Positions 1,554-60,462 of a DNA stretch of 64,000 nucleotides are shown piece after piece (the first letter of the stretch is position 1; every line of letters starts with the position of its first letter). Source of the DNA: Candidatus Peribacteria bacterium (GTDB lineage Bacteria; Patescibacteriota; Gracilibacteria; Peribacterales; Peribacteraceae); contig SICN01000001.1 of the NCBI GenBank assembly GCA_009691405.1, forward strand, positions 11,651 to 75,650, given 5' to 3'. Made by a program: the position numbers and the translations under genes. The notes under the pieces are model-generated. The model searched no databases and was not told where the DNA came from. It saw only the letters and a program-made list of their open reading frames with translations.

Positions 1554-1690
1554 TTCTTTCTTTGTTTGTGCAAAGAAAGAACCAAAGAAAGCACAGCGCG
1601 CCAATTCCCGCCAGCTCACCCCCATCAGCCTTCGCCAAGGCTACGGCCGACAAGCCTGTGGCGCGCGCCAACCCTTTGGATGTCGCTTTA
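1554..1690. repeat. Composite palindromic intergenic element containing a family-A element (1625-1656)
   Basis: TTCTTTCTTTG...CAAAGAAAGAA inverted repeat, followed by TCAGCC-TTC-GCCAAGGC-TAC-GGCCGA-CAAG. Confidence 0.7.
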
Positions 1691-1692
1691 CT

Positions 1693-2715
1693 TCACGACA
1701 GATGCGATGCTCCTCCCGTTTTTGCCTTAAAAATTATGCAATCCTTCTGCGCTTCCGCAAAAGCTACCACTGCCGCAAGGCTGTCTCCGGTGCAGATCAA
1801 ATGCACGGTTGGCCCCGCGTCCATTGTATACAGCACGTTCAGTTTGTCGCTTTTTCTCAGACGCTCGATGTCGCGGATGATCCGGTGGGTTGCGTTGGAA
1901 AGATACTGCAGAGACGGGGTCTGCGTTTGCATTACGCGGTGCATCTCGAGTGCGTCTTCCTCGGAAACTTTTCTGAGTTTCTCAAAATCTTTTGTTTCGA
2001 GTGCGCTGATGCATTCCTGCATTCGTCTTGGAATTTCGTTGAGCCGCTTTGCAAACAGTGGGCTTGTTGCGGCTTTCGCATGGCCTTCCGTCGATCCGAC
2101 TTTTTTCTCTTTCTGGTCGGGTACGAGAATGATGTCGTGAAGCATCCAGTCCTGTTCGCTTGCGATTTGTCTTCCGTATGCCGAACCGATGCCCTCGCCG
2201 TGATTTTCGAGCGCAACATAGCCGCCGAAGCTGTTGCGTGCGCCCGATCCTGCGCCAAGCCTGCCGAGGATGCTGATTTCTTTCCGTGAGAGAGCGTCGC
2301 CTTTCACGAGAGCGCCGTAGGCTTCCGCGAGACAACTGAAGACAGCGGCAGATGATGCGATACCGATGGCGGGTGGGACGCCGGAGTGAATGACGATAGA
2401 AACGTTTTCAGGAAGTTCTTCATCGCGCCCGATGGTTCGGAGAAATTCCTTCGACAGTGCGTAGTGTTTCTCAAGCCTTGCAATGGACGCATCGCTCTGG
2501 GGTTTTTCGACGCCGTCATGATCGTACGATTGCACCGAAATTTTTTCAGCCAGTTCAATCGCTACGCGCACTGTTGGGAAATCCAGCACCATCGACACAG
2601 AGTCGGCAGCCGGAAGGCGCCACTCATTATTGCGATTGCCCCAATACTTGATGAGAGCGATGTTTGGTGAGGAGTGAGCGTGGATCATGGAAGTATCGGC
2701 GAACGCGGCAAGCAT
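1693..2715 (-). CDS. mvaD: Diphosphomevalonate (or phosphomevalonate) decarboxylase, GHMP family
   Basis: NIALIKYWG, GIASSA, RLGAGSG and DAGP motifs. Start could instead be ATG 2688 (MIHAHSSP). Confidence 0.88.
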   Translation of the reverse strand: MLAAFADTSMIHAHSSPNIALIKYWGNRNNEWRLPAADSVSMVLDFPTVRVAIELAEKISVQSYDHDGVEKPQSDASIARLEKHYALSKEFLRTIGRDEELPENVSIVIHSGVPPAIGIASSAAVFSCLAEAYGALVKGDALSRKEISILGRLGAGSGARNSFGGYVALENHGEGIGSAYGRQIASEQDWMLHDIILVPDQKEKKVGSTEGHAKAATSPLFAKRLNEIPRRMQECISALETKDFEKLRKVSEEDALEMHRVMQTQTPSLQYLSNATHRIIRDIERLRKSDKLNVLYTMDAGPTVHLICTGDSLAAVVAFAEAQKDCIIFKAKTGGASHLS

Positions 2716-2772
2716 GCCGCTCCCATTGTATCCAAAGTATTGAACTCATGGGGAGCGCGATGCTTCGCGCGT
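2703..2772. repeat. Inverted pair of 22-23 nt REP-like palindromes (family B)
   Basis: 2703-2725 on minus reads TGGGAGCGGCATGCTTGCCGCGT; 2751-2772 on plus reads GGGAGCGCGATGCTTCGCGCGT. An identical copy of the first lies at 45421-45443. Confidence 0.75.
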
Positions 2773-2774
2773 CG

Positions 2775-3599
2775 TTATGGCAGCACGAGCACCATTCCGC
2801 CGCCCCCCGACCTGCTTCCCGCACCGAGGATCTTTGCAGCTCCGCCGTTCACTTCGATTTCCGCGATCATCGTTTGCACGCTTTCGGGTACCACGCCGAG
2901 TGCGATTTGCGCGCGGTGATGGTCGTGCAGAACATCTCGAATCGATTCTCCTTCAAGAATTCTCTCCGTGCAGCGACCGATCGTGTCGATCGCTTGTCGC
3001 ACTTCGGGTTCGTTATCTTCGTAGCGTGAGCGTATCCATGCAACCAGTGTGGGAGTCGGCTCGGACGGATTGCCGGTGTCGATCAGTTTCATGCCGCGGA
3101 GAAGCTCCGAAGACAATTCGATTTGTTCTGGTACCCTGTCTTTCTCGAAGAGGATCGGTTTCTCTTCCCAGATGACCGTGAAGTCGATGCCGCTGTTGCC
3201 TGTATTCATTTCGTTCTCCAATTCGAGTGCAATTTTTGCTGAGTCCGGACCGATAAGGCAGCGGCACATGGCGATGATGAGGGATGTCGAGCTGCCCATG
3301 CCTTTTCCGAGGGGCAAAGCATTCTCGATCGTGAGTGTGCCGGAGACAGGCTTCGCTTTGTTGATGATTTTTTCAGCGACCTTCCGTGCATAATCGATCC
3401 AAAGTGCCCCCACCCCTTCCCCTCCCCCGAGAGGGGAGGGGACGAAATGGATGGTGATGCCATTATTCTTTTGGCTTTCCTCCAATGTGATGTTCATTCT
3501 CAAATCTGACGGTATCGCGATGCCGCGTTTGCCGAAGAGCACGGCATACTCGCCGCTGAGGATGATTTTGCCGGAGGCGGACGCAGAACGTGTCTTCAT
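2775..3599 (-). CDS. mvk: Mevalonate kinase (GHMP)
   Basis: GKIILSGEYAV, PLGKGMGSS, SGID and AKILGAG..GGGG motifs; mevalonate cluster context. Confidence 0.85.
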   Translation of the reverse strand: MKTRSASASGKIILSGEYAVLFGKRGIAIPSDLRMNITLEESQKNNGITIHFVPSPLGGGEGVGALWIDYARKVAEKIINKAKPVSGTLTIENALPLGKGMGSSTSLIIAMCRCLIGPDSAKIALELENEMNTGNSGIDFTVIWEEKPILFEKDRVPEQIELSSELLRGMKLIDTGNPSEPTPTLVAWIRSRYEDNEPEVRQAIDTIGRCTERILEGESIRDVLHDHHRAQIALGVVPESVQTMIAEIEVNGGAAKILGAGSRSGGGGMVLVLP

Positions 3600-3611
3600 A
3601 GCATGGATTCT

Positions 3612-4313
3612 TTAACCGCCGAATCTTCTCTTTCTTCGTTCATACTCTTTCAGTGCGGCATCGAGATCATCGACCCCGATATCGGGGAAGTATTTCGGGC
3701 TGAAGATCCATTCGGCGTACGCGCTCTGCCAGAGGAAAAAATTGCTTGTGCGTTGTTCGCCCGAAGAACGGAGGATGATGTCGATTGCGGGGAGCTCCGG
3801 ATGGTCGAGATGTTGACGAATGGATTCTTCCGTGACCGCGGGCAGGGATGCCCGCACTGTTTGCGTGTGCAATTTTTCTATCGCTCTCACCACTTCATCT
3901 TTTCCTCCGTAGTCGACTGCAAGGTGCAGGGTGAAACCGGTCTCATCTTTTGTTGCTTCTTCCGTTTGCTCGATCAGCGTGCGAAGCGAAGTTGGAATGC
4001 GATCACGTCTTCCCGAATGCACGAAGCGTGTGTGATTTTCTTTCAGTTCACGTCCCTCTTTTCGAAGATACTCTTCAAGCATCGTCATGAGCATCGAAAT
4101 TTCTTTTTTGTCGCGCTTCCAATTTTCGGTCGAGAAGCACCAAACCGTGAGGACATTCACTCTCGGGTCTTTCCTGCACCAGTCCGTGAGCGTGCGGAAA
4201 TTCTCGACGGCCTTCTCGTGACCTTTCCACACGGCTTCCAGCTTGTGTTCTTTTGCCCATCGACGATTGCCGTCGGGGATGATGGCAAGATGGAGTAAAG
4301 GTGTGTCGATCAT
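3612..4313 (-). CDS. uppS: Polyprenyl (undecaprenyl) diphosphate synthase
   Basis: IPDGNRRW, FSTENWKR, YGGKDE and RSSGEQRTSNFFLWQ motifs. Start at 4313 overlaps the idi stop (ATGA). Confidence 0.93.
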   Translation of the reverse strand: MIDTPLLHLAIIPDGNRRWAKEHKLEAVWKGHEKAVENFRTLTDWCRKDPRVNVLTVWCFSTENWKRDKKEISMLMTMLEEYLRKEGRELKENHTRFVHSGRRDRIPTSLRTLIEQTEEATKDETGFTLHLAVDYGGKDEVVRAIEKLHTQTVRASLPAVTEESIRQHLDHPELPAIDIILRSSGEQRTSNFFLWQSAYAEWIFSPKYFPDIGVDDLDAALKEYERRKRRFGG

Positions 4314-4840
4314 GATTGCAGAGAGGAGAGTGCTTTCGGAAGTCCAAGATGGAACCATGGTGCGTATTGATCTTTCTTCGCTGCCATATCGGACGACAGT
4401 GCAGCAAGGCTGATCCATTGCCACTCCAATACTTCTTCGGGATTCGAATTCATATGCTGATCTTCCGGAACGATGCCTGTGAGAATCGTATCGTACTCAT
4501 CTTCGACTCCATGTCCGCTCGGATCCTCCGCGCGATAGGTGAATGAGGGTCCTTCTTCAAGCGCACAGGTGAAGCCAAGTTCTTCTTGAAGTCTTCTTTC
4601 TCCGGCTTCACTTGAAGACTCTCCGCGCAAGGGATGACTGCAGCACGTGTTTGCCCAGAAGAGAGGCCACAGCATTTTCTTCGCGCTCCTCTTTTGTATG
4701 ATCATCTTCGACTTCTCCGGATTGAAGACGTAGACCGAGAACGCGCGATGTCGGATACCGGTTCCCGTATGTGCGGCAAGAAGCCCCACATCGCCGAGGT
4801 CGCTGCCTGCTTCGTCCGTATGGATAACGGTGCGTGTCAT
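4310..4840 (-). CDS. idi: Isopentenyl-diphosphate delta-isomerase, type I (Nudix)
   Basis: HRAFSVYVF, WANTCCSHP, RRLQEELG, NPEEV and APWF motifs. Start MTRTVIH has TACACT 6 nt upstream. Confidence 0.92.
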   Translation of the reverse strand: MTRTVIHTDEAGSDLGDVGLLAAHTGTGIRHRAFSVYVFNPEKSKMIIQKRSAKKMLWPLFWANTCCSHPLRGESSSEAGERRLQEELGFTCALEEGPSFTYRAEDPSGHGVEDEYDTILTGIVPEDQHMNSNPEEVLEWQWISLAALSSDMAAKKDQYAPWFHLGLPKALSSLQS

Positions 4841-4922
4841 GGGAAAAGTGTATCCCAAAGGGGGAGTAAATGTCTTGCGCTTCAGTTGAATCCGTTTGCC
4901 TATCGGCGGTACGATAGCATTC

Positions 4923-5546
4923 ATGGATTTCAGCCATACTCTCAGGAAGCAGCGTCTTGCTTTGGGGCTTGCAGTCGTTGCGGGACTTTCTTTTGCTTAT
5001 GCCGCCGTTCGCGATCTTCAGGAAGATGTTTCAAAGACACGCTTCACCGGCGTTATCACAGCGCTCGCAAAAGACGATGCATCGGGCAGCCACAATTACG
5101 ATATGTTCCTCAAAGTCGATACGGTGACGGGTGATGCTACCGACTTCAAACACAGGAACGAAATCAGCGTCGATTCCTTCAGTTGGAACGAGTCCCGCGC
5201 GATCGGCGCGCCGCGCCCTTCGATGGACGCCTTCGTCGTGACCATGCCTGGGAGCAGCGCATCGCCGAAATTGTTTCTCTACGGTGCCGGCGGCACGAGA
5301 ATTCCGAGAGTCGCTTTGAGCGTGAAAATGAAGGGGGGTAGTGAAGATTTCCTCAAGTGGGTGCTGACCGATGCACAAGTGCTCTCCTATAAGACCGTCA
5401 CCAATACGCACGGGGACGGAGTGATGGACCAGGTCACGTTTAGTTTTGCGAAGATCGAAACAGAGATGCACCAAGTGCTCCCCGACGGTTCCCTCGGCCC
5501 CGCGGCAAAAGCCGGGTGGGATCAGAGGACGAACAAGGCGAATTGA
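4923..5546 (+). CDS. hcp: Orphan Hcp-family (T6SS tube-like) protein with N-terminal hydrophobic signal/anchor
   Basis: DMFLKVDTVTGDATDFKHRNEISVDSFSW, ASPKLF, VTFSFAKIE and DGSLGPAAKAGWD match the Hcp1 pattern. N-terminus RKQR-LALGLAVVAGLSFAYAAV. Confidence 0.85.
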   Translation: MDFSHTLRKQRLALGLAVVAGLSFAYAAVRDLQEDVSKTRFTGVITALAKDDASGSHNYDMFLKVDTVTGDATDFKHRNEISVDSFSWNESRAIGAPRPSMDAFVVTMPGSSASPKLFLYGAGGTRIPRVALSVKMKGGSEDFLKWVLTDAQVLSYKTVTNTHGDGVMDQVTFSFAKIETEMHQVLPDGSLGPAAKAGWDQRTNKAN

Positions 5547-5550
5547 TATT

Positions 5551-7275: not shown

Positions 7276-8370
7276 ATGCACATCCTTCTCGCCACAGGCA
7301 TTTACCCGCCCGATATCGGCGGGCCTGCCACGTACGCAGAAAAATTGGCGCAGGAGTTTCTCAATCTCGGTCACACCGTGACGGTCGTCACGTATGGTTC
7401 GGTGCGTCCGAATGCCTCTGAGCGCGAAAGATTGACTGTCATTCCCGTGAGCAAGGTCGGGAGCGTCTTGTCCCGTTGGTTTCGCTATTCGCGGGCGCTA
7501 CGGAAGTACGGCAGCGATGCCGATGTCATGATCGCATTCTCGTCGGTGAGCACGGGAGTCCCCCTGATGTTTTCCGGTCTCAAGAAGCCGAAGAAAATCC
7601 TGCGTCTGGGAGGAGATTTTTTCTGGGAGCGGTATACGGACGGCGGCGGGATGAAGAGCCTTTCTGACTGGTACCGATCGGTCTGCGGTTTTTGGCGGAT
7701 CGTCAATTTCACGTTTATGGCTGGCATTCTCCGGTCGTTCGATGCTCTCGTGTATTCGACGGAATTTCAGAAATTTATTCATGAAAAAGAGTATGCGGGG
7801 TTGCCAAAAAGCACGGTGATTGAGAATGCAAGACCCACCTGCGCCCCGAACAGCGGGGCTTCGGTGGGCAGGCCACATCAACCGTTTAGGCTTCTTTTCA
7901 TGGGTCGCTTCGTAGGATTCAAGAATTTGCTGGCACTGCTCGATGCGATCGTGAACATGCCAAATGTCACGTTGACGCTTGTCGGATCTGGTCCGATGGA
8001 ACAGGCGCTCCGTGCAAAGACGACAGCGTTGAATCTCGGCAGCCGCGTGCGATTTCAAGCACCGGTTTCGGGTGAAGAGAAGAGTCGTGTTTTTGCAGAG
8101 CATGATCTTTTGATTCTTCCGTCGGTGACGGAGATTAGTCCGAATACGGCGCTCGAGGCCGCAGCCGAAGGATTGCCTGTGCTCTTGACTACGGAAACAG
8201 GACTTTCGGGGAGTGGGATGATTTGCCTGAAGCCGCTTCGGTTAGCCAGCCAGATTGCTTCCGCGATCCGTGAGTGCATCGAGCATCCCGTATCCACCTC
8301 GAACGATGTGCAGGTCAGGACGTACGCGAAAGTGGCGCAAGATTGGATGCAATTTTTTTCTTCCCTATGA
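7276..8370 (+). CDS. Glycosyltransferase family 4
   Basis: GIYPPDIGGPATY, GRFVGFKN and EISPNTALEA motifs. Carries an in-frame family-A element at 7834-7874. Confidence 0.88.
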   Translation: MHILLATGIYPPDIGGPATYAEKLAQEFLNLGHTVTVVTYGSVRPNASERERLTVIPVSKVGSVLSRWFRYSRALRKYGSDADVMIAFSSVSTGVPLMFSGLKKPKKILRLGGDFFWERYTDGGGMKSLSDWYRSVCGFWRIVNFTFMAGILRSFDALVYSTEFQKFIHEKEYAGLPKSTVIENARPTCAPNSGASVGRPHQPFRLLFMGRFVGFKNLLALLDAIVNMPNVTLTLVGSGPMEQALRAKTTALNLGSRVRFQAPVSGEEKSRVFAEHDLLILPSVTEISPNTALEAAAEGLPVLLTTETGLSGSGMICLKPLRLASQIASAIRECIEHPVSTSNDVQVRTYAKVAQDWMQFFSSL

Positions 8371-32455: not shown

Positions 32456-32546
32456 GGAGAGGTGGCCGAGTGTCCGAAGGCGCGCGACTCGAAATCGCGT
32501 AAACCCCAAAAGGGTTTCGAGGGTTCGAATCCCTCCCTCTCCGCCA
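32456..32546 (+). tRNA. tRNA-Ser(CGA)
   Basis: GGAGAGG/CCTCTCC acceptor stem, anticodon loop CT-CGA-AA, long variable arm, GGTTCGAATCC T-arm, discriminator G plus encoded CCA. Confidence 0.95.
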
Positions 32547-32654
32547 GCCTTCGCAAAGCGAAAGCTGTCCACCGTAGCACTTGAGCTCAGTGAATGTTTT
32601 ACAAATACAGAGTCGCTTTGCTATGGCTGGCAAGCCATCAAGTGCGAAGGCGGG
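32544..32654. repeat. Two interlocked, oppositely oriented family-A palindromic elements at the tRNA 3' end
   Basis: Plus: CCAGCC-TTC-GCAAAGCGA...TCGCTTTGC-TAT-GGCTGG-CAAG. Minus: CCCGCC-TTC-GCACTTGA...TCAAGTGC-TAC-GGTGGA-CAG. Confidence 0.75.
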
Positions 32655-32727
32655 CAATACAGCATTCTTTTCTATGAAGCGTGTTCTTATGAAAACAACC
32701 CACCCCCGAAGGAGTGGGCGATTGCCG

Positions 32728-50345: not shown

Positions 50346-50713
50346 ATGGAGCAGATCTCCGGTCAGCCATCGGTTATCGATTTCGATAGATTGCTTGAAG
50401 AAATGCGAGACATGGACGATCGAAACCGATTAGGGAATTGTTGTCGGGTGACGGACCATCCGAGGAGGAATTGACCGACATGGTTGATCGTTCGCGTGCG
50501 TTTGCAACGTCGGCGGAGCACACATCGAATATTGCGCTTCTGCAGCAGATTGCCAGAGTCCGCGTGCTTGCCAACACGTTGGGAATCAGAGCACTTCTTC
50601 TCGAGATGTTCAGAGATGACAATGATCGCGGTCGAGACGACGAGAATCCTTTCCCGATGCGACCGAATCATCCGCGCGGCGTTCGTAGTCTTTTCCCTGT
50701 GCTTGCGGCGTGA
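50346..50713 (+). CDS. Hypothetical: one frameshifted gene or two small ORFs (50346-50474 and 50480-50713)
   Basis: ATG 50346 has TACACT upstream; the second ORF lies in the -1 frame. Confidence 0.35.
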
Positions 50714-50741
50714 GTTCTCACTCCGTTGTACACTGCTGAGC

Positions 50742-52229
50742 ATGACCTTTCAGCACACTCGTGAACGGCTCACGCTTTTGCTTCTTGCACTGCTGCCATT
50801 TCATGCTTTTTTAGTGACGGTTTTGACTCGGGTGATCGCAGGACCGGGTCATGCACCGCTTCCCGAACTCGCGGTGTGGAAAGAGGCGATTCTTGGATTG
50901 ATTCTCATCCTTGCATTCGTAGAACTTGTGAAGAAACGAACGATACCGGTCGCAGATGTCATCGATTGCATCATCCTTTCGCTTGGTTTTGTTGCATTGG
51001 CACTTCGGCTGATGCATCACCAATCGGCAACAGTGTTTGCGTTCGGTTTTAAGTACGACTTGCTTCCACTCATTGCTTTCATCCTCCTCCGCCGAGTCAA
51101 CTGGTCTGACGAATTCCACACAACGCTTCTTCGACTGCTGCTCCTGGTCGGTTGCATTGTCGCAGCGTACGGCATCGTTGCCGAATTTCTCCCGCTCCGA
51201 TTTTTCGTCTGGCTTGGCTACTCCGATCTGCATTCTCTATACGTCGCAAACGGTCCGCTTGCAGCATTTCAGGAACTTGAAGGCGGGATGATGCGACGAG
51301 CGCAGAGCAGTATGAGCGGGCCGAATCAGTTGGGGCTTTGGCTGTTGATTCCTCTTGGGGTGTTGCTTGGAGGAAAGAATGTCGGAGAAGAAATGAGCGG
51401 GAAACGCATAGCAATCGGTGTGTTGTTGCTTTTGGCACTGATGCTCAGTTTTTCCCGTGCTGCCTGGATCGCAGCAGCGGTGATGATCATCTTTGCATTC
51501 GCCAGATCAACGAGTGCTCTGCATTGTCGTAAACTTTACGTCGTGATTCTTGGGTTCTTGGCATGCTTCGGCATTGCAGTCACTCTTCTGTTTCCATCAG
51601 TTTTTTTCCGCTTCCAGTCTTCATCCGATCACATCCGAAAACCCGTCGAAGCAATCAGGATAATGATGGATCATCCATTCGGTCTCGGTCTCGGTACGGC
51701 AGGACCCGCGAGCAATCGTTTTAGTGATACGTGCGTGAAACTTCCGAAAGATTCCGACTGGTCGTGGGCAAAGGATCGGCAGGATCTCTGCGTGTTTGTC
51801 GATGGCAATCAAGTCCAGCCTTCGCTCCCGTCGGGGGAGCTACGGCCGGCAGGCCAGCCTTCCGCCCGTGCGTGCTCCTGTCCGCTTCTCACCGAGAACT
51901 GGTATCTGCAGATTGGCGTCGAGCTCGGATGGATTGGATTGATTCTGAGCTTGTTGTTGCCAATTTTTATCTTGAGACAATTGATAATTGAAAATGGAAA
52001 ATTGAAAATAAATGTGGAATTATCAATTATCAATTATCAATTATCAATTTTTCTGGGTCTCTCTCTTGCTGCTCTCTTTTTACATGCATTCGAGGACAGC
52101 GCGGTTGCGTACACGGTTTGGGTGCTGCTTGCGTCTGCTTTTGCTACACTTCACCCATGTCATCGCCTTCTCAGCCGATCGCAGGGTCCATCGTCATCCT
52201 CGACTTCGGCGGACAGTACGCGCATCTGA
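50742..52229 (+). CDS. O-antigen ligase (Wzy_C)-like polytopic membrane protein
   Basis: RAQSSMSGPNQLG, SFSRAAW, HPFGLGLGTAG and ENWYLQIGVELG motifs. Carries two in-frame repeat inserts; 3' end overlaps guaA. Confidence 0.8.
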   Translation: MTFQHTRERLTLLLLALLPFHAFLVTVLTRVIAGPGHAPLPELAVWKEAILGLILILAFVELVKKRTIPVADVIDCIILSLGFVALALRLMHHQSATVFAFGFKYDLLPLIAFILLRRVNWSDEFHTTLLRLLLLVGCIVAAYGIVAEFLPLRFFVWLGYSDLHSLYVANGPLAAFQELEGGMMRRAQSSMSGPNQLGLWLLIPLGVLLGGKNVGEEMSGKRIAIGVLLLLALMLSFSRAAWIAAAVMIIFAFARSTSALHCRKLYVVILGFLACFGIAVTLLFPSVFFRFQSSSDHIRKPVEAIRIMMDHPFGLGLGTAGPASNRFSDTCVKLPKDSDWSWAKDRQDLCVFVDGNQVQPSLPSGELRPAGQPSARACSCPLLTENWYLQIGVELGWIGLILSLLLPIFILRQLIIENGKLKINVELSIINYQLSIFLGLSLAALFLHAFEDSAVAYTVWVLLASAFATLHPCHRLLSRSQGPSSSSTSADSTRI

Positions 52230-54025
52230 TCGCAAGCCGAATCAGACGCTTCGGGTTCAAGGCATACATTTTGCCTTCGGAAACGAAGGCGCAGGACCTG
52301 AAAGATGTTGCAGGCATTATTCTTTCGGGTGGACCTCAGAGTGTCTATGAAGCAGGGAGTCCCCAGGCAGATCCAGAAATTCTGGAACTCGGTATTCCTG
52401 TTCTTGGTCTCTGCTACGGTCATCAGTGGCTTGCCCACGCCCTCGGCGGGAGGGTGGCACCGGGCAATGTGAAAGAATATGGACTCACCGATATCGAGCA
52501 ATTGTCGGGTGACGGTCTGTTTGCGGGACTTCCTCAGCAGTTCACGGTTTGGATGTCGCACGGAGACGAAGTGAAAGAATTGCCGGAAGGATTTCTGACG
52601 GTCGCGAGTTCGAAGAATTGCAAGAATGCGGCGATGATGAATGCGGAGAAAAAAATCTTCGGGATCCAGTTCCACATCGAGGTGACGCACACACAGCACG
52701 GCATGGACATCCTCAGACGCTTCGTCGATCTTTGCGGACCGGAAGCATGGTCCATGAAAAGTTATGCTTCACACATCGGGGAGGAAATTCTCAGAGAGGT
52801 TGGAGAGAAAAAAGTCTTCATGCTTGTCTCAGGCGGCGTCGATTCGACGGTTGCCTTCACGCTCCTGAATAAAGTTCTCGGCGAAGATCGCGTGCAGGGT
52901 TTGCTTGTTGATACAGGTTTGATGCGCAAAGGCGAAGTGACTGCAATACAGAAAGCATTCGAGCCGCTTGGGATCAAGAATCTGCAGGTCGAAGACGCAT
53001 CGGAGCGGTTTTTTGCGGCACTGAAAGACGTGTACGAGCCCGAAGCGAAACGTGCAATCATAGGCAGAACATTTCTTGATGTGCAGCGCGCAGTCAGCGA
53101 GCGCATGGGACTTCGAATCGAAGACGGTTGGATGCTCGGGCAGGGGACGATCTACCCCGATACCATCGAGACCGGTGGCACGAAGAACTCGGACAAGATC
53201 AAAACGCATCATAACCGTGTCGAACTTGTGCAGCAGATGATCGAAGAAGGACTCGTGATCGAACCCCTGAAAGAACTTTACAAGGATGAGGTGAGGCAGC
53301 TTGGGGAAGAACTTGGATTGCCACATGAACTTGTCTGGAGACATCCGTTTCCGGGTCCTGGACTCGGCGTAAGGATTCTGTGTGCTTCAGCCTCCACCTC
53401 CATCCCCGCCTTCGCTCCTGCGGGAGCTTCGGTGGGCAAGCCTAGCCCTTTCCCCGCCCATTCGACAGGCTCAGGGCAAGCGGGGGGAAGGGAAAATATA
53501 GACAGAGTTGTGCTGCCAGTGCGCTCTGTCGGGGTGCAGGGTGACGGTCGGACGTATCGGCATGCGCTTGCGCTGTTTGCAGAGGATCACGAGTGTCCGA
53601 CTGATTCTCACTACGCACTCGCATCGTCGATCCCGAACGGCAGCAAGACGATCAACCGCGTTCTCTTCTGCCTCTCGCACGCCAAACTGTTTGAAATTTC
53701 TTTCACACCGACGTTCATCACCAAGGAAAGCGCAGATCTTCTTCGGGAAGCCGATGCAATCGTGACGGATGCGATTCGTGAAGCGAATTTGTACGAGAAA
53801 ATTTGGCAATTTCCTGTTGTACTTCTTCCTTTTGGAGAGAAAGAGGGCATGAGATCGATCATTCTCCGTCCGATCGAATCGACCGATGCGATGACGGCTG
53901 CGGCGTACAGACTCCCGAAGGAAGTTCTGAGGAGAATCACGCAGGCAATACTGAAGCTACGCGGCATCGATGCGGTGTTCCTCGATCTCACGAATAAACC
54001 GCCGGCTACGATTGAGTGGGAATAG
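52157..54025 (+). CDS. guaA: GMP synthase (glutamine-hydrolysing)
   Basis: DFGGQY, GLCYGHQ, QFHIE, SGGVDS, IKTHHN, RHPFPGPG and KPPATIEWE motifs. Start has TACACT 6 nt upstream. Confidence 0.95.
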   Translation: MSSPSQPIAGSIVILDFGGQYAHLIASRIRRFGFKAYILPSETKAQDLKDVAGIILSGGPQSVYEAGSPQADPEILELGIPVLGLCYGHQWLAHALGGRVAPGNVKEYGLTDIEQLSGDGLFAGLPQQFTVWMSHGDEVKELPEGFLTVASSKNCKNAAMMNAEKKIFGIQFHIEVTHTQHGMDILRRFVDLCGPEAWSMKSYASHIGEEILREVGEKKVFMLVSGGVDSTVAFTLLNKVLGEDRVQGLLVDTGLMRKGEVTAIQKAFEPLGIKNLQVEDASERFFAALKDVYEPEAKRAIIGRTFLDVQRAVSERMGLRIEDGWMLGQGTIYPDTIETGGTKNSDKIKTHHNRVELVQQMIEEGLVIEPLKELYKDEVRQLGEELGLPHELVWRHPFPGPGLGVRILCASASTSIPAFAPAGASVGKPSPFPAHSTGSGQAGGRENIDRVVLPVRSVGVQGDGRTYRHALALFAEDHECPTDSHYALASSIPNGSKTINRVLFCLSHAKLFEISFTPTFITKESADLLREADAIVTDAIREANLYEKIWQFPVVLLPFGEKEGMRSIILRPIESTDAMTAAAYRLPKEVLRRITQAILKLRGIDAVFLDLTNKPPATIEWE

Positions 54026-54042
54026 GCTATACTGTCATCTCC

Positions 54043-54615
54043 ATGGGAAAGAACACTCCTCTTTTGCCGCAAGAACTTGCCGCACTGGTCCTCAAGGCAC
54101 AGGACGGTGACACCGAGGCGTTCGGCAAAATATACGATGAGTTTTTGACGCCTGTGTACCGCTACGTTGTGTTCCGTTTTCCGGCGGATCTCACCGAGGA
54201 TCTGGTCGCCGACATTTTCGTGAAAGCATTCGAGAAACTGCACAGCTATCGTCCGATTTTCGGCGTGCCGTTCTCCGCATGGCTGTTTCGGATCGCTCGC
54301 CACACCATCATCGATGCGTACAGACGGAACAGGGGATTCGAGGAACTCAGCGAGGAGTTTGTCGACGAGAGTCGAGAGAGCGATCCGAAGCTCAGAACAG
54401 AGCAGTCCCTCTCGGTCAGGCGCGTGCGCGAAGCGATCATGAAACTCCCGGAGGACCACCGTGACGTCGTGTTGCTTCACTACATTTCGGGTCTCGGGCA
54501 TCGCGAGGTGGCCAAGGCGCTCCACATGACCGAAGGGTACGTACGCATCCTCAAATTCAGGGCGCTCAAGAAACTTGAGGGGCTTCTGAGCCTTTCCATA
54601 TTGCCCAATGATTGA
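54043..54615 (+). CDS. ECF-type RNA polymerase sigma-70 factor
   Basis: AQDGDTEAF, EDLVADIF, FSAWLFRIA and a region-4 HTH ending RALKKL. Confidence 0.9.
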   Translation: MGKNTPLLPQELAALVLKAQDGDTEAFGKIYDEFLTPVYRYVVFRFPADLTEDLVADIFVKAFEKLHSYRPIFGVPFSAWLFRIARHTIIDAYRRNRGFEELSEEFVDESRESDPKLRTEQSLSVRRVREAIMKLPEDHRDVVLLHYISGLGHREVAKALHMTEGYVRILKFRALKKLEGLLSLSILPND

Positions 54616-54663
54616 CTTTTTATAATATTCGTCTCTATTCATATGTTTTTTGCCGATCTTCGC

Positions 54664-54688
54664 TGTAACGCAATCGCTTCTTTTTCGT
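54664..54688 (+). promoter_or_regulatory. Putative ECF-sigma promoter TGTAAC-N16-CGT
   Basis: TGTAAC at 54664-54669, a 16-nt spacer, and CGT at 54686-54688, upstream of ATG 54717. Confidence 0.5.
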
Positions 54689-54716
54689 TTTAACAAGCGA
54701 AGATAGACATATTTCT

Positions 54717-56618
54717 ATGCTCGATGAAACCATCCTCCAAAGGCTCGCTCAAGACATCACCCCGGGTGATGACCAAAGGTCGCGTCTGAGGATGCGCATT
54801 CAGCAGCGGATCAATCCGCTTCAAAAGAGCGTAGACCTCACTCAGCCGTCACTGGTGTTCAGAAAATCTATGAAGGATCGAGTCCTTCTTGCACTGCAAG
54901 GATCTCCTGTGGGAGACAGCATGCGAGAACTTGCAAAGAGCGTCTCTCTCTCGGGGGAGCGAGTGCTCTCGCTTCGAGAGATGATCCTTGGGCGTCTTGC
55001 GCTCAGAGCCGAGCCGTCACTTGTTCATAGCAGCGTGAAGTGGGCGGCGTCTTTTGCGCTTTTCCTTCTGATTATTCGAGCGATGCCTCTTGTGTTCCTT
55101 GCTCCGACAACGCAGGCAGGAATCGGCGTGCAACTCATTCCCAATGGAGACGATGTGTCCGTGTTCGTCGGAGGGGTGTGGAGGAGCGTTATTTCTCCGG
55201 AAGTGGTGGGCGGACCCATGATGATTCGCACGGGGCAGTCGCAGGTGACGATCATCTTGAATGACGATGGAGTGATTCGTCTCGGGTCCGATACCACATT
55301 CAAACTTCATGACATCGGCGATCGCCCACAGTTTGTGAGTGCAGGACCTACGGCAACGCTCGTGCGCGGACAGATCTGGGTGCTGGGTCTTCTTCCTCCC
55401 GTGGTCGAGAGCATCCTCATCGAGACGACGAGGGGGCAAGTCGAAATCAACTCAGGCAGCGTTTCGATCACCGAAGACAACAAGAGCACAACGGTTGCGG
55501 TCTACGATCGCGGCGTGACATTCCGCGATGAGGAGCAAACATCGTTCATCGTGTCCGGAGAGAAAGGGATGATCAGCGACCGGACTCCCACCCTCTCCAT
55601 TCTTTCAATGCCGACTCGCGCATTTGGCAGTCCGCTCGTAAGCCAGAATCTGGAACAAGATGCCGTGCACCGAAACGAGATCGCAAAATTGCAGAAGGAG
55701 AGACGAGAGCGCATGGCGGGCATTCTTCCCACCTCCATTCTGTATCCCGCAAAACGAATTGCGGAGAGAGTGGATGTGCTCTTCACCCTCACGCACGACG
55801 GTCGTACGGAGAAGCTGATCGCACAGGCCGATACCCGCTTGAGTGAAGCGCTTGCCCTCATCCACGATGGTCAGAATACGGAAGCATCGGTTCCTCTCAG
55901 CGAGTACAGGGACAGTCTTGTGGCAATGGCGAGCGGAACAGGCGATAACCTGGTGAAGTACTTGATCAAGAGACAGATCGCCGATGCGAGTGCCACGATT
56001 TCTCCAACGACATCATCCGGAAAAATTCAGCTCGTCAGCCTCGCAGTGCTTGAGATCAGTGCCTCGGTTCCGGACACCGCACTGCAATCCAAAGACATCG
56101 AGGGATATGTGCTCGTGAACAAGCTGACCCAAATCAATCATGCCCTCTCCGTAGACAAAAATCTCACGGGTGCACTTCTCGCATACTCGGATGTCAGTCC
56201 GTACATCAAAGAACTCTTGTCCGAGAATGGAACGCATCCGCTTCTCCAGAAAGAAGCGAGGTCACTCTTGGTGTCCACTGCTTCTCTTTTGAAAGGAGCT
56301 AAGAATGCCGATCAGAACAAGATTCTTGTCGCCGTGGAACAAGACCTCAGCCAGTATCTGCCTCCGGAACAGGAATCGGTGCTCGTTACCGAGGCGAAAC
56401 TGAATGCGGTCATTCAGAAGATCCTGCAGCGCATTTTCATCTTCAAATCGCCCCTCAGCCGTTACAATCAATTGATGCAGGAGATGTTGGAGCTTCGAGG
56501 GAACCAAAATAGGGGCACGCTTCTGCGTCGCCTCTACAGCGCTCTTCCCGAGAATGGGCTCGGTGGATACGTACTCACGGAGATCAAGAATTTTGGGGAT
56601 GAGTTGAATGGGAGGTAG
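54717..56618 (+). CDS. Putative anti-sigma-like membrane protein (FecR-like beta domain plus DUF5667-like helical domain)
   Basis: One TM; IRTG..VTIILNDDGVIRL FecR-like segment; AGILPTSILYPAKRIAE..ADTRLSEA segment; directly downstream of the ECF sigma. Confidence 0.65.
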   Translation: MLDETILQRLAQDITPGDDQRSRLRMRIQQRINPLQKSVDLTQPSLVFRKSMKDRVLLALQGSPVGDSMRELAKSVSLSGERVLSLREMILGRLALRAEPSLVHSSVKWAASFALFLLIIRAMPLVFLAPTTQAGIGVQLIPNGDDVSVFVGGVWRSVISPEVVGGPMMIRTGQSQVTIILNDDGVIRLGSDTTFKLHDIGDRPQFVSAGPTATLVRGQIWVLGLLPPVVESILIETTRGQVEINSGSVSITEDNKSTTVAVYDRGVTFRDEEQTSFIVSGEKGMISDRTPTLSILSMPTRAFGSPLVSQNLEQDAVHRNEIAKLQKERRERMAGILPTSILYPAKRIAERVDVLFTLTHDGRTEKLIAQADTRLSEALALIHDGQNTEASVPLSEYRDSLVAMASGTGDNLVKYLIKRQIADASATISPTTSSGKIQLVSLAVLEISASVPDTALQSKDIEGYVLVNKLTQINHALSVDKNLTGALLAYSDVSPYIKELLSENGTHPLLQKEARSLLVSTASLLKGAKNADQNKILVAVEQDLSQYLPPEQESVLVTEAKLNAVIQKILQRIFIFKSPLSRYNQLMQEMLELRGNQNRGTLLRRLYSALPENGLGGYVLTEIKNFGDELNGR

Positions 56619-56694
56619 TACGAGGCTTTCCTGCCTTCCCGTTGACTTTCCCTTTGCTTCGCAGGTACCTTCCCTGAGCTTTCCCCGCGTTTCT

Positions 56695-57258
56695 ATGTAC
56701 ACCATCACCGATCTCAAGCCTGGGCGTGCCGTCACCATCGACGGCGATCCGTACCTCATCATGGCTTCACAATTTGGACGCAAGAGCATGAGTAAGGCGA
56801 ACATGCAGTGCAAATTGAAGAATCTGAAGACCGGTTCCATCGTCGCGAGAAACTTCCAAGGAAGCGAGAAGATCGAACCTGCATCAGTCGGATACAAGCA
56901 CGTCCAGTACTTGTACAAGAATCAGGGAGCGAGGGCGTTCATGGATCTCGAGACGTACGATCAATTTGAACTCCAAGATGACATGATCGGAGAGGGCGTG
57001 AAGTTTCTGGTCGATGGACTCGAAGTAGATGCACTCATGTACGAAGAGAAGCCGATCGGCATCAAGCTGCCTGTCACGGTTATTTTGCAGGTGATGGAAA
57101 CTCCCCCTGGTGTCCGTGGTGATACGGCGACCGGTAGCGGAAAGGCCGCAACCCTGAGTAGCGGTGCCGTGATCAATGTTCCACTTTTTGTGAACGAAGG
57201 TGACAAGATCAAAGTGAATACCGAGAGCGGGGAGTACGTCGAGCGGGCGAATGGCTAA
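56695..57258 (+). CDS. efp: Elongation factor P
   Basis: DLKPG..DGDPY, KLKNLKTG, QYLY, FMDLETYDQ, PGVRGDTA, VPLFV and GEYVER motifs. Confidence 0.95.
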   Translation: MYTITDLKPGRAVTIDGDPYLIMASQFGRKSMSKANMQCKLKNLKTGSIVARNFQGSEKIEPASVGYKHVQYLYKNQGARAFMDLETYDQFELQDDMIGEGVKFLVDGLEVDALMYEEKPIGIKLPVTVILQVMETPPGVRGDTATGSGKAATLSSGAVINVPLFVNEGDKIKVNTESGEYVERANG

Positions 57259-57692
57259 GCCGCTTCCGGCCATTCGTCATCCTCGTCATCCTCGTCATGC
57301 GTGCTCATCGGCGGCTCGTGTTCATCTTCATCGTGGTCATGCACGTTGAAATCCGGTTCCGCACTTTGCATGAGGGAATCGTCATCGTCCGTTCTCTTCG
57401 AATGAAGGGAGGGGATTTCGAATGTGTGACGGAAGAATTCTTCCAGTCTCCTTCCGACGGTTTGCACGCAGTGTTCCGAATTCATGGTTGCACGTCTGAT
57501 CGCCGTGTGGACGGTTTCGACTGCTTCGTGCTTGAGAAGACATGCTCGAATTGCGTTCCGCACGAGTGTCTCGAGTCGCTGAAATTTGTGGATCGCATGA
57601 TTCCATTCTCGATTGTCTACAAGTACGGAAACTCCAAGCAGAATGGTCTGCACGTGATGCTCGGTATCGAGAGTCGTTTCAGAATGGTGCAT
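57255..57692 (-). CDS. Hypothetical protein with acidic/His-rich tail
   Basis: 145-aa ORF downstream of gatB on the same strand. Confidence 0.5.
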   Translation of the reverse strand: MHHSETTLDTEHHVQTILLGVSVLVDNREWNHAIHKFQRLETLVRNAIRACLLKHEAVETVHTAIRRATMNSEHCVQTVGRRLEEFFRHTFEIPSLHSKRTDDDDSLMQSAEPDFNVHDHDEDEHEPPMSTHDEDDEDDEWPEAA

Positions 57693-57746
57693 TGCGAAAA
57701 GCTTGGAGAAAGTGACAATGCAGGTTATTGCATTTTTTTTGAAATG

Positions 57747-59201
57747 TCAACCTTCGATTGCCAGCATCTCCAGGAGGAGTGTATTCACTTTTGCAGCATC
57801 AGCTTGGCCTTTACTGAGCTTCATCACTGCACCGACAACGGCACCGAGGGCCGCAGTCTTTCCTTCCTTGAATGAGGCAATCGCTTTCGGATTCGCCGCG
57901 ATCGCTTCTGCGATGAATTTTTTGAGGGTTACGTTGTCGCTCACTTGCCCCATTCCTTCTTCTTTGATGATTGCACTCGCAGATTTTCCGGAGACGATCA
58001 TTTTCGCAAGTACGTCTTTGCCGGCATTGACGTTGATCGTTCCGGAGTGGATCGCTTTCGCGAGTTCGACCATATCGGCAATCGTTGGAGCATCGGCAAG
58101 AGTTTTGCCGTGTGCGGTCAGGAAGCCTGGCATTTGGGTGAGCACAATGGACGATGCCCGTTTTGGCTCTCCGATCGCTTTCTCGATTGCATCGAAACGA
58201 TCGCGGAGGACTTCCTGATCGATGAGCATTTCGGCTTCCGCTTCGGTAAGCCCCAAGCTTACATACCCTGCTTTCATTTCGGACGGCAATTTCGCGAGTC
58301 CCGACACGACGGCGGCAATAAATGATTCGCTGATATGGAGAGGAGGAATATCCGGTTCGGGGAAGTACCGATAGTCGGCGGCGGATTCTTTGTCACGAAG
58401 CAGCACGGTTTTCTCCTCCTCGTCGATCCAGCCTACCGTTGTCTCACCCGTCGGCTGCTTTCCTTCGTTCCAGAGCTTCGTCAGCATTGTCTCTTGATAG
58501 AGTAGGGCTTTCTCCAGGGCTTTGAATGAATTTAAGTTTTTGATCTCGATGCGAGGATACAGTTTCTCTTCACCCTTCGGGCGAAGCGAGATACTGGCAT
58601 CGAAGCGCATCATTCCTTTGTACATGTCGGCCTCACTCGTGCCGGCGTTGATCAAGATGCGTCGTAGTTCTTCGGCGAACGCACTCGCTTCTTTTGCCGA
58701 TCGCAGATCCGGCTCGGTGACGATTTCCATCAACGGCGTACCCGCGCGGTTGTAATCGCAAAGCGTGTATCCCGTTCGATGCATCAATTTCCCCGCATCG
58801 TTCTCGATGTGCAGCCGATGAATGCGGCATATGCCCGGAGCACTCTTATTCGTTTTCGGATCCGTCACGGAAAACTTCACGGTGCCGTGGCTCGCAAGCG
58901 GATGCTTGTACTGCGAGATTTGGTAGCCGGTTGGCAGATCCGGATAGAAGTAATTTTTGCGGTCGAAGTGGCTCTCTTCGTTTACGGTGCATCCGAGTGC
59001 GACCGAAGAGCGTACGGCTTTCTCGATGACGGCTTTATTCACGACGGGCAGAGACCCCGGGTGACCCATGCACACCGGACAGACGGTTGTGTTCGGCTCT
59101 TTGCCCCATGCATCATTGTCGCATCCGCAGAACATCTTCGATTTGGTATTCATCTGCGCATGGACTTCCAAACCGATAATAACTTCCAGTGATTGTTTCA
59201 T
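57747..59201 (-). CDS. gatB: Asp-tRNA(Asn)/Glu-tRNA(Gln) amidotransferase subunit B
   Basis: IGLEVH, FDRKNYFYPDLP, NRAGTPLMEIVTEP, EIKNLNS and DYRYFPEPD motifs. Confidence 0.96.
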   Translation of the reverse strand: MKQSLEVIIGLEVHAQMNTKSKMFCGCDNDAWGKEPNTTVCPVCMGHPGSLPVVNKAVIEKAVRSSVALGCTVNEESHFDRKNYFYPDLPTGYQISQYKHPLASHGTVKFSVTDPKTNKSAPGICRIHRLHIENDAGKLMHRTGYTLCDYNRAGTPLMEIVTEPDLRSAKEASAFAEELRRILINAGTSEADMYKGMMRFDASISLRPKGEEKLYPRIEIKNLNSFKALEKALLYQETMLTKLWNEGKQPTGETTVGWIDEEEKTVLLRDKESAADYRYFPEPDIPPLHISESFIAAVVSGLAKLPSEMKAGYVSLGLTEAEAEMLIDQEVLRDRFDAIEKAIGEPKRASSIVLTQMPGFLTAHGKTLADAPTIADMVELAKAIHSGTINVNAGKDVLAKMIVSGKSASAIIKEEGMGQVSDNVTLKKFIAEAIAANPKAIASFKEGKTAALGAVVGAVMKLSKGQADAAKVNTLLLEMLAIEG

Positions 59202-59220
59202 AATTCAGAAGGGAGAGGCC

Positions 59221-59252
59221 GACTTGCCGGCCGAAGCTTCAGCGAAGGCTGG
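59221..59252 (-). repeat. Family-A palindromic element (intergenic)
   Basis: Minus strand CCAGCC-TTC-GCTGAAGC-TTC-GGCCGG-CAAG. Confidence 0.75.
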
Positions 59253-59280
59253 TGATGGTTTCGAGTTCCATGCGTCTATC

Positions 59281-59754
59281 TTACATCAGATTTTCTTTGT
59301 GATAATCGACAATCAGCACCCCCTCCAGATGGTCCACTTCATGTTGCACAACGCGCGCGTCGAAGTCCGAGAGCTTCAGTTCACGTTCTTTGCCGGTTTC
59401 ACTCAGGAATTTCACAATAATGTCGCAGGATCTTGTGATCTGCAGCCAGAGATCCGGAAGACTTAGACAGCCTTCCTCCACCGTGTCAGTCTCCTTGCTT
59501 CGCCAGATGATATTCGGGTTCACGAGTGGCGTGAGTTTTTTTGAGATCATCGCGATGCAGATGCGTTCCGATCGGTTCACCTGCGGCGCTGCTAGTCCAG
59601 CGCCTTTCGCCGCGACCGTCGTTTGTTTCATATTCCGAATAAGTTCTTTTATTTCTTTTGTGATCTTCGGCACGTCTTTCGTCTTCGTTCTCAGAACCTT
59701 GGTATTTCGGCCGATGACAATCGGGAGAACAGGCACGGACGGAGTATACCGCAT
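59281..59754 (-). CDS. def: Peptide deformylase
   Basis: GAGLAAPQ, EGCLS and QHEVDHLEG motifs. Start overlaps the upstream stop (TAATG). Confidence 0.95.
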   Translation of the reverse strand: MRYTPSVPVLPIVIGRNTKVLRTKTKDVPKITKEIKELIRNMKQTTVAAKGAGLAAPQVNRSERICIAMISKKLTPLVNPNIIWRSKETDTVEEGCLSLPDLWLQITRSCDIIVKFLSETGKERELKLSDFDARVVQHEVDHLEGVLIVDYHKENLM

Positions 59755-60335
59755 TACGCCTTCACCCCAATGCCGCAGATTGCCTGCAGATCCTCGATCG
59801 AGGCTATTTCCCCGAGCTCCATCATCTTCATCAGCGCATGTGCCGTGAGTAGAACGTCCGGGAGTGCTCTGTGGCGAGCTGCCGGGATCGTGAGATTCAG
59901 ACGGCGCGCGACGGCGTCGAGACTGTGACCGAACTCGGTTGGGAAGAGCGCTCTGCTCAGGCGCATCGTGCAGAGACAGTCCGGCAGATCGACATATCCC
60001 CAACAGAGCTGTTTTTCGATTTCCATGAATCCCATGTCGAATGTCGCATTGTGTGCGACGAGAATCGATCCACTGCTGAATTCTAGAAATTTCGGCAACA
60101 CTTCCTCGATGCCAGGTGCGGTTTTGACGGCGTCGTCGCTTATCTTGTTCACCCTTTTCGCCTCCCAGGGAATATCGCGTTCGGGGTTCACGAGTGACAC
60201 GAACGATTTTGTTTCGTCGATGGAACCGTTCTCGATCCTGATACCGGCGATCTCGATGATCTTATGACCTCTGCGAGGATCCAGCCCCGTCGTCTCGACA
60301 TCGAAAACCGTGAGTGGAGGGAGGGGGGTTGGCAT
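59754..60335 (-). CDS. DEDDh 3'-5' exonuclease (DnaQ/PolC-exo-like)
   Basis: FDVETTG, AHNATFD and HRALPD motifs. Confidence 0.9.
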   Translation of the reverse strand: MPTPLPPLTVFDVETTGLDPRRGHKIIEIAGIRIENGSIDETKSFVSLVNPERDIPWEAKRVNKISDDAVKTAPGIEEVLPKFLEFSSGSILVAHNATFDMGFMEIEKQLCWGYVDLPDCLCTMRLSRALFPTEFGHSLDAVARRLNLTIPAARHRALPDVLLTAHALMKMMELGEIASIEDLQAICGIGVKA

Positions 60336-60384
60336 GAGGGGAGAGGGATCGTACGAAGCGAGTGGAGGCTATACCTTGGGATAC

Positions 60385-60462
60385 GAATTGAAAATTGATA
60401 ATTGATAATTGAGAATTGACCCCCCTTCGCTTTCTGTTCGGATAAAGCTTCGAGGGGCGAGC
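60385..60462 (+). repeat. Heptamer tandem (nAATTGA)5 abutting a family-A element
   Basis: GAATTGA AAATTGA TAATTGA TAATTGA GAATTGA, then CCCCCC-TTC-GCTTT...AAAGC-TTC-GAGGGG-CGAG. Confidence 0.75.

Follow-up and report, generated by a model that had tools for sequence, protein, structure and literature searches.

We examined a 64,000-nucleotide stretch of the genome of a Candidatus Peribacteria bacterium (assembly GCA_009691405.1, contig SICN01000001.1; C1:11651-75650 in our numbering), hereafter the window, which contains seven loci of a dispersed hairpin that we call family A. The genome (G000) comprises 1.01 Mb in 45 contigs, with 51.7% G+C and an estimated completeness of 93.7%, and it holds about 40 copies of the element. 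Family A is a nested hairpin of the form CCnnnC-TTC-[GC hairpin GC]-TWC-GnnnGG-CARG with a 3x3 internal loop. The unit extends from the outer arm to CARG, and solo units measure 30-43 bases. In the window these units lie between genes and, in frame, inside genes, and one long form stands directly behind a transfer RNA (tRNA) gene (Table 1). Elsewhere in the genome the hairpin is physically linked to the gene for a small nuclease of the GIY-YIG type, also behind tRNA genes.

Table 1. Family A copies and associated features of the window, followed by the small GIY-YIG loci on other contigs of G000. E-values refer to the covariance model R1 described in the text.
Location	Strand	Feature	Description
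1625..1654	+	family A	30-base unit (TCAGCC..CAAG), between two minus-strand genes; E=1.2e-5
7834..7872	+	family A	39-base unit, in frame in a GT4 glycosyltransferase gene (7276..8370); E=3.8e-7
32456..32546	+	tRNA-Ser(CGA)	ARAGORN call; the long-form element begins with the three bases of its encoded CCA
32544..32663	+	long-form family A and GCGAAGGCGGGC stub	gene-less remnant of a tRNA-end cassette, ~117 bases
51815..51853	+	family A	39-base unit, in frame in an O-antigen-ligase-like gene
53405..53440	+	family A	36-base unit, in frame in guaA
53452..53485	+	second micro-hairpin, not family A	CCCCGC..ttcgacaggctcagggcaa..GCGGGG, in guaA
59223..59252	-	family A	30-base unit; E=1.8e-5
60420..60461	+	family A	42-base unit, the weakest, intergenic, 23 bases before an ATG at 60485; E=4.3e-6
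C39		full-form cassette	tRNA-Ile-CCA, forward hairpin, spacer, inverted hairpin, 78-residue GIY-YIG open reading frame
C29		small GIY-YIG gene	behind tRNA-Thr
C11		small GIY-YIG gene	behind tRNA-Leu
C15:35417-35900		cassette	tRNA-Pro, 93-residue GIY-YIG gene, exact 32-base duplicate of the tRNA 3' end, reverse family A copy
C18:8300-8850		GIY-YIG pseudogene	one TAA stop; between a complete tRNA-Met and its partial 5' copy
C13		small GIY-YIG gene	followed by three family B repeat copies

Copies were collected with a structure-aware genome scan, which returned 87 raw matches against 20-38 in Markov shuffles. Approximately 38 clean copies were distinguished by their common CC..C arms and CAAG tail. 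An alignment (A1) of 37 of these 38 copies, with the long form omitted, served to build a covariance model (R1), as a preliminary description of this DNA had proposed. The model found further copies genome-wide: 46 matches in G000 at E<=1, and 38 at E<=0.001 with stricter filters. Six of the seven window loci were recovered, and the long form was missed. The preliminary description had placed copies at all of these sites, and the architecture is indeed present at each, except that 32544-32654, given there as "two copies," holds a single long-form element (32544-32634), whose 18-base arms enclose a 51-base loop and which starts on the CCA of tRNA-Ser. When we sought a long autonomous form in G000 (half-sites 40-4000 bases apart with fully pairing arms), only this 91-base element was found.

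The stems of family A covary, as that description had held for a dispersed hairpin family. In A1, 90.7% of stem cells are paired compared with 77.5% after shuffling, a difference inflated by the choice of copies through a scan that demands pairing. Double-sided stem changes occur in 41 cells versus 13.5 in shuffled alignments (0 of 500 shuffles reach 41), and the signal is lost when partner columns are slid by 1-3 positions. These double changes, together with the independent recoveries described below, are stronger evidence for the family than the percentage of paired cells. The hairpins do not show the pattern of intrinsic terminators, namely a GC hairpin with a T-run behind it that stands downstream of genes in sense orientation: a T-run follows only one of the 37 aligned copies, and 14 copies are intragenic, in both orientations.

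Presence of the hairpin differs among closely related genomes, and inserted copies stand beside empty sites, as had been expected. The five congeners (G001-G005) contain 0, 5, 47, 36, and 9 R1 copies. Of 24 genomes in this taxonomic family, 20 yield R1 matches, as do 6 of 16 other families in the class. Because synteny of the window region is preserved across the genus, copies could be compared site by site. Comparison with empty sites in congeners shows four window copies to be exact insertions, measuring 30, 36, 39, and 39 bases. In all clean insertions the inserted piece runs from the first C of the outer arm through the G of CARG, and no regular target duplication was seen at them. Within the 11-kb stretch 50400-61500, G000 has four copies and G004 three, with one site in common, and G001, G002, G003, and G005 have none.

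For example, set against G005 and G003, the copy at 1625 is an insertion of exactly 30 bases. It is located within the first 21 bases of an open reading frame (ORF) with a TTG start, probably an over-extended call. At the 60420 site, G003 and G005 have a decayed look-alike and G002 has none. The copy at 59223 belongs to a stretch of 76 bases, inserted within the first codons of a gatB-like gene (57747..59201, minus strand), that G002, G003, and G005 lack. This insertion (region 59145-59252) detaches the old start, MELETI.., from the rest of the gene. Its family A loop introduces a TGA into the old frame, and a new ATG comes from the remaining 46 inserted bases, so that the protein now begins MKQSLEVI...

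A home-made gene caller combined with hand checks places 14 of 44 G000 copies in real genes, with both orientations represented (three R1 matches with E>0.02 are left out of this table of locations). Unit length is divisible by three for 12 of the 14 copies in genes versus 13 of 27 outside them (Fisher P=0.04). Divisibility of genic lengths by three had been put forward as a check, and the three genic window copies had been described as keeping the reading frame, which we confirm. The insertions measure 36 bases in guaA, 39 in the O-antigen-ligase-like gene, and 39 in guaA of G004, and the copy in the glycosyltransferase family 4 (GT4) gene is in frame and common to G000 and G002. The orthologs with empty sites that had been sought exist in G002 for guaA and in G002, G003, and G005 for the O-antigen-ligase-like gene.

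Pfam confirms GT4 and GuaA as host proteins. In the GT4 protein (Glycos_transf_1 at residues 197-309), the copy is translated as RPTCAPNSGASVGRP, directly ahead of the C-terminal Rossmann half. G002 has the same shell at this site with a wholly different inner hairpin, 3 bases shorter, and G005 and G001 have unrelated filler. The O-antigen-ligase label reflects a sub-threshold Wzy_C match (27.5 bits, cut-off 31.7). Here the copy is translated as (Q)PSLPSGELRPAG, and G004 carries two tandem copies, 43 of 44 bases identical to G000 within flanks that are only ~70% identical. In one X4 contig (depth 2.5), three loop bases of this copy are absent, which may be an error.

In guaA, the 36-base insertion is exact relative to G002, is unchanged in metagenome contigs of three other studies, and is translated as PAFAPAGASVGK. 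Sequence alignment places it in a segment with 112 residues here versus 2 in a solved bacterial GMP synthase (7mo6), which fits insertion into a linker that would tolerate extra residues. G004 has its own 39-base insertion in the linker just ahead of the SGGVDS loop, at a site that is empty in five other genomes. The guaA linker following ..GPGLGVRILC (53385-53511) is a hot spot in which the filler differs in each of six congeners and includes heptamer-like runs in G003, G004, and G005. The second micro-hairpin in this linker is a 24-base in-frame insertion relative to G002. Its core has only two copies in G000, one of which serves as inner loop in a family A copy on C29.

No mobilizing enzyme had been recognized in the window, and we confirm this: the genome has seven GIY-YIG (PF01541) matches and two Y1_Tnp matches, none of them on contig C1. 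One of the seven PF01541 matches lies in a 790-residue frame and the other six are small; our counts of small genes exclude UvrC-like ORFs of 531-850 residues. Five of the small genes are intact, with ORFs of 78-98 residues, and a TAA stop interrupts the sixth. PF01541 spans nearly the whole of these proteins (E 1e-14 to 1e-17), no NCBIfam family matches them at its cut-off, and the nearest solved structure is the UPF0213 protein 1zg2 (E=8.6e-6). All six small genes have hairpin repeats beside them, and all lie outside the window. For four of them, a family A copy is found at a distance of no more than 300 bases (chance P ~3e-5).

The C39 locus shows the association in its most complete form (Table 1). 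Two of the other loci bear traces of duplicated tRNA sequence. The C15 cassette is bracketed by direct repeats of the tRNA end, as is a cassette behind tRNA-Ser in G003, there with 16 bases. On C18, the partial tRNA-Met copy is itself split by a 37-base perfect hairpin.

We then looked for the hairpin beyond the genus. The exact shell CCAGCCTTCGC-N4-30-GCTACGGCYGGCARG occurs at at least 120 loci in many phyla, including Acidobacteriota, Alphaproteobacteria, Verrucomicrobiota, Planctomycetota, Elusimicrobia, Nitrospirota, and many groups of the Candidate Phyla Radiation (CPR). With approximately 24 specified bases, a rough estimate of the number expected by chance is ~0.1. Among the 123 shell matches listed, 58 begin on the encoded CCA of a tRNA gene, always with a 3-base overlap, and 33 different anticodons are represented. 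ARAGORN was run here for tRNAs only, so copies linked to transfer-messenger RNA (tmRNA) count as unlinked. In G000 itself, a tRNA gene is no more than 100 bases away for 10 of 44 copies, compared with 0.65 expected, and several of these copies are upstream of the tRNA. The preliminary description missed this tie of family A to tRNA CCA ends. Copy numbers beyond Peribacteria are low (at least 2-22 scored R1 matches in five genomes), and only two viral stretches contain the exact shell.

This distribution bears on the idea that the hairpins share no common origin and are each generated locally, through template switching or quasi-palindrome correction as DNA is replicated. The inner hairpins vary freely yet stay paired, two copies have a recursive architecture (stem-TTC-stem-TTC), and tandem doubling exists, all of which such a process could produce. 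A ~24-base shell that is exact across so many loci and phyla, and identical insertion ends at unrelated sites, argue so strongly the other way that we find fresh origin at each site scarcely credible. An origin of family A by template switching is thus refuted; such switching may still act on the shape of the inner hairpins.

Relatives of the C39 nuclease number at least 537. In the best 80 of these loci, 71 contain R1 matches, 125 in total. Nearly all of the matches fall in the 350 bases ahead of the gene, where a forward copy comes first and a reverse copy second. In 69 of the same 80 loci, a same-strand gene for a tRNA or tmRNA is located just upstream, and the hairpin starts on its CCA. 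These counts are not independent, as 28 of the 80 loci are from Bradyrhizobium and apparently represent one inherited tRNA-Ala locus. Small GIY-YIG ORFs are found at 13 of the 120 shell loci listed, and the 12 strong ones are 0-148 bases downstream of the shell on the same strand. Similarly, 10 of 26 small GIY-YIG genes in G003, G004, and G016 have an R1 match within 300 bases, in every case upstream (chance P ~1e-8). Among the enzymes that the preliminary description had suggested looking for, GIY-YIG is therefore the one whose gene is physically linked to the hairpin, in G000 and in many phyla.

The tRNA-Ser locus of the window offers a direct comparison among congeners. In G002, G004, and G005, plain AT-rich DNA follows the CCA directly. 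In G003, the tRNA is followed by a hairpin of another subfamily and a GIY-YIG gene, and the final 16 bases of the tRNA recur at the end of the cassette. In G000, there is a gene-less 117-base piece consisting of the long-form hairpin and the stub of a second hairpin, and the sequence common to G002 resumes near 32664, downstream of this remnant. The comparison indicates that hairpin and gene arrive together after the CCA, that the same tRNA has been struck independently, and that cassettes decay to hairpins.

On balance, and with a confidence only slightly above even, we interpret family A as the cis-acting hairpin of a small, widespread GIY-YIG cassette of tRNA ends that has been multiplied in this lineage as solo units. 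The full cassette would begin with a tRNA or tmRNA gene whose end is CCA and with a forward hairpin that has this CCA as its start; a short spacer, a second, inverted hairpin built in the same way, and the gene for a single-domain GIY-YIG nuclease of 78-95 residues would follow. Gene-less solo units of 30-43 bases would have multiplied from it and landed between and inside genes, with genic copies persisting only at sites that tolerate an extra loop and only if the reading frame is preserved. If the small nuclease acts as the Ssn nucleases discussed below do, it may bind the folded hairpin on single-stranded DNA and nick beside it, after which replication or repair would copy or move the nicked hairpin. 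Tandem doubling, swapping of inner hairpins between copies, and loss of the nuclease gene could explain the variety of forms.

The closest known system is that of the Ssn nucleases and the SRM hairpins. According to the main text of Chenal et al. (2025; PMC11893778), SsnA is a 94-residue single-domain GIY-YIG protein that cuts single-stranded DNA beside the Neisseria NTS hairpin, Ssn proteins bind hairpin repeats, thousands of homologs are flanked by related SRM hairpins, and 2% of NTS copies lie inside genes. The same main text has no occurrence of the term "tRNA." Both systems combine a single-domain GIY-YIG protein of ~80-95 residues with many-copy hairpin repeats of the same genome, beside which it is encoded, and both are spread across phyla. 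As a stand-in for SsnA we used an ORF adjoining an NTS copy (L416), to which the small nucleases of G000 are 30-37% identical. The C13 protein matches this ORF with 36.7% identity over 90 residues (E=7.5e-13) and the C39 protein with 37.5% over 56 residues (E=1.8e-8). By sequence similarity, the G000 nucleases are close relatives of the NTS-adjacent ORF and candidate members of the cd10448 clade, which is defined by homology to N. meningitidis SsnA at E<1e-10. The resemblance of the C13 protein to this ORF extends to the C-terminus (..EKRLKKWSRAKK..).

The hairpins themselves differ. Family A lacks the CGTC/HGTC tag and is nested, with its 3x3 internal loop. Its copies lie upstream of the gene, whereas SRM hairpins flank both sides, and the cassette sits exactly after the CCA of a tRNA or tmRNA. 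About a third of family A copies are intragenic, in contrast to the 2% for NTS. The SRM motif HGTCWYN(0-2)YYVSBRHN(0-5)WNVSBRGN(0-2)RNCYNB fits none of 38 family A copies and none of 20 copies of the family B repeat, and it has three matches in the whole G000 genome versus 4-8 in Markov shuffles. We read the tRNA-end cassette as, most plausibly, a variant of the Ssn/SRM type that differs in its hairpin and its layout and has a precise landing site. We found no published cassette of a tRNA-end hairpin and a small GIY-YIG gene in a search that covered subscription journals little, and the supplementary lists of the Ssn study may include this clade. A portion of one further paper reports only a palindrome in a tRNA trailer of Methanopyrus (PMC5217627).

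Mobilization in trans had been inferred in the preliminary description, with repetitive extragenic palindromic (REP) elements and their REP-associated tyrosine transposases (RAYTs) as the model. As far as the relevant sections of Di Nocera et al. (2013; PMC3733652) describe them, REPs are sorted into GTAG- and CGTC-tagged families, the CGTC REPs lack a dedicated transposase, some REPs are intragenic and in frame, and some are nested in small outer palindromes (T. roseum GTAG-23). The GTAG families in that work number 24. Like REPs and REPINs, family A consists of small, GC-rich, many-copy palindromes with compensatory stem changes, some of them in frame in genes. REPINs are inverted pairs; the dispersed copies in G000 are almost all single, and the cassette leaders consist of a forward and a reverse copy.

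On the reverse strand of family A, GTAG directly precedes the inner stem in 15 of 37 copies (GAAG in most others), and this sequence, the REP-like size, the GC-rich stems, and the existence of intragenic REPs would all suit a REP/REPIN-type element moved by a RAYT, a Y1 HUH transposase. G000 also has one IS200-like TnpA gene and one RAYT-like gene, the latter encoding 144 residues at C13:12600-13410. The RAYT-like gene has its own, different hairpin repeat on both sides. R1 found family A at none of 22 Y1_Tnp loci of G000 and six relatives. At 13 Y1_Tnp loci in five family-A-bearing genomes of other phyla, there was no convincing match, only two marginal ones (E 0.08 and 0.23). With no family A at any of these 35 loci from 12 genomes, the defining feature of a REPtron is missing, and the GIY-YIG gene stands in the place of the RAYT. 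One genome (G041) has at least seven family A copies and no Y1_Tnp match. We consider movement by a RAYT largely refuted and give it little credence, and the REP/RAYT analogy falls with it. The repeat around the RAYT-like gene, GGGAGC-GCGnGA-TGCT-TCnCGC-GGTC..GACAC, looks like a separate unit of the REP/RAYT style.

Copy number provides a mixed picture for the cassette interpretation. All seven genomes of the family with at least 36 copies have two or more C39-type genes, and three of the four zero-copy genomes have none at >=70 bits. Copy number correlates with the count of C39-type genes (rho 0.52, or 0.66 without G011, a genome of the same family and another genus), with kinship uncorrected.

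Several observations weigh against the cassette interpretation. Copy number correlates about equally well with the Y1_Tnp count (rho 0.55, kinship uncorrected), a point that would also suit a RAYT. C39-type genes at >=70 bits are absent from four genomes of the family that hold 9-15 copies, and G011 has eight such genes and one R1 match; its hairpins may form a subfamily outside the reach of R1. At 107 of the 120 shell loci listed there is no GIY-YIG ORF within 8 kb, and 16 of the 26 small GIY-YIG genes in G003, G004, and G016 have no R1 match nearby. The proximity of nuclease genes and hairpins in G000 is not decisive by itself, as both favor tRNA genes. Among contigs from four runs of two studies, no copy-skipping joint was found over 50400-61500. 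We infer mobilization of the solo copies by the GIY-YIG nuclease from the Ssn analogy. Finally, 18 of the 36 stem mismatches in A1 are A.C on the CC..CARG strand, which become G.T if the other strand is read, and GC skew, which we use below, is only a stand-in for replication direction.

The shell loci without an ORF, the four genomes with hairpins and no C39-type gene, and the reverse situation in G011 could all be explained if the hairpin spreads alone or by host functions (gene conversion, slippage), or is kept as a tRNA trailer or terminator. The GIY-YIG gene would then be a separate selfish gene homing there, with the hairpin as its landing pad and not its cargo. The swapped inner hairpins of the GT4 copy common to G000 and G002, and the tandem pair at the O-antigen-ligase site of G004, also fit this alternative. 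It accounts poorly for the tRNA-Ser locus, where hairpin and gene are both present in G003 and both absent in three congeners, and for the fixed order and orientation at 71 of the best 80 C39-relative loci. The near-absence of T-runs and the genic copies in both orientations further argue against a role as terminator. We therefore judge the landing-pad alternative unlikely, though a serious contender.

Strand orientation also bears on the proposed cassette mechanism. The CC..CARG strand lies on the locally G-rich strand for 30 of 39 copies (P=0.001; five copies with an absolute skew below 0.01 are left out), and there is no bias relative to the majority gene strand (23 versus 21). If skew marks replication direction, the CC..CARG strand would be the lagging-strand template, a bias that would suit a single-stranded-DNA enzyme and, in this respect, resemble Ssn. 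Which strand folds is ambiguous from the G.U/G.T asymmetry in A1: the given strand has 9 wobble pairs and 36 mismatches and the reverse strand 23 and 22. The CC..CARG strand is also the transcribed strand of tRNA-linked copies, and it is the one favored by skew despite its A.C mismatches.

IS200/IS605 insertion sequences have hairpin ends that are recognized on single-stranded DNA, insert with no regular target duplication, and show a replication-biased orientation. Family A is like them and their gene-less derivatives in lacking a regular target duplication and in its biased orientation. It differs in having a linked enzyme other than a Y1 HUH transposase, a much smaller unit, and a tRNA end as its target. 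The free-standing GIY-YIG homing endonucleases of the phage T4 Seg family possess a DNA-binding domain and home between homologous sites. They too are small selfish GIY-YIG genes beside tRNA genes; in contrast, the protein described here consists of the catalytic domain alone, and its cassette is found behind at least 33 different tRNA species. Rickettsia palindromic elements likewise lie in frame in functional protein genes and add short peptide segments, as mentioned in part of Di Nocera et al. (PMC3733652). Family A, at 30-43 bases, differs from them in size, probably belongs to a sequence family other than RPE-1 to RPE-10, and occurs in another phylum, and it has a linked enzyme gene and a tie to tRNA ends.

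A bolder proposal is that a bare GIY-YIG domain of ~80 residues acts as a new kind of hairpin-guided, single-strand DNA "transposase" that recognizes a nested hairpin, places its cassette precisely behind any tRNA or tmRNA CCA throughout Bacteria, and scatters gene-less hairpins as new peptide loops in essential proteins of reduced genomes. We regard this as tentative and somewhat unlikely. In many bacteria, small palindromic repeats have long been without a known mobilizer. A widespread hairpin tied to a tiny nuclease gene and to the tRNA CCA end would provide a testable engine for REP-like repeats outside the RAYT system, and the in-frame hairpin insertions in housekeeping genes of CPR bacteria would gain an identifiable origin. 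The presence of the cassette in culturable Bradyrhizobium makes bench tests possible. Should the protein prove to be a single-strand nuclease of the Ssn type that has a new hairpin specificity, an enzyme-target pair would be added to that toolbox.

Other repeats were noted in the same genome. Family B, TCTCGATACGC..hairpin..GCTACTCGAA(G/C)TGACAC, occurs at C13:32400-32560, behind the small GIY-YIG gene, and in about 20-31 other places (for example, C13:24854-24919 and C14:51530-51562). Among 47 tRNA and tmRNA calls in G000, 45 end in an encoded CCA, and some of these are directly followed by recurrent trailers other than family A. One, TTCGACTCGG..CTCATGG, lies behind three tRNAs, and another, CGTAGTACACGTCGCT..GTGACTACATGG, follows two tRNA-Thr genes (examples of trailers are at C6:15496, C15:25297, C40:230, C21:2777, and C29:10928). 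The family A copy at 60420 is preceded by a tandem array of AATTGAn heptamers (60387-60419). A second such array lies at 52019-52052 and 10 others elsewhere in the genome, ahead of genes and with their position kept in congeners. In metagenome runs, contigs of many other organisms pile up at these arrays.

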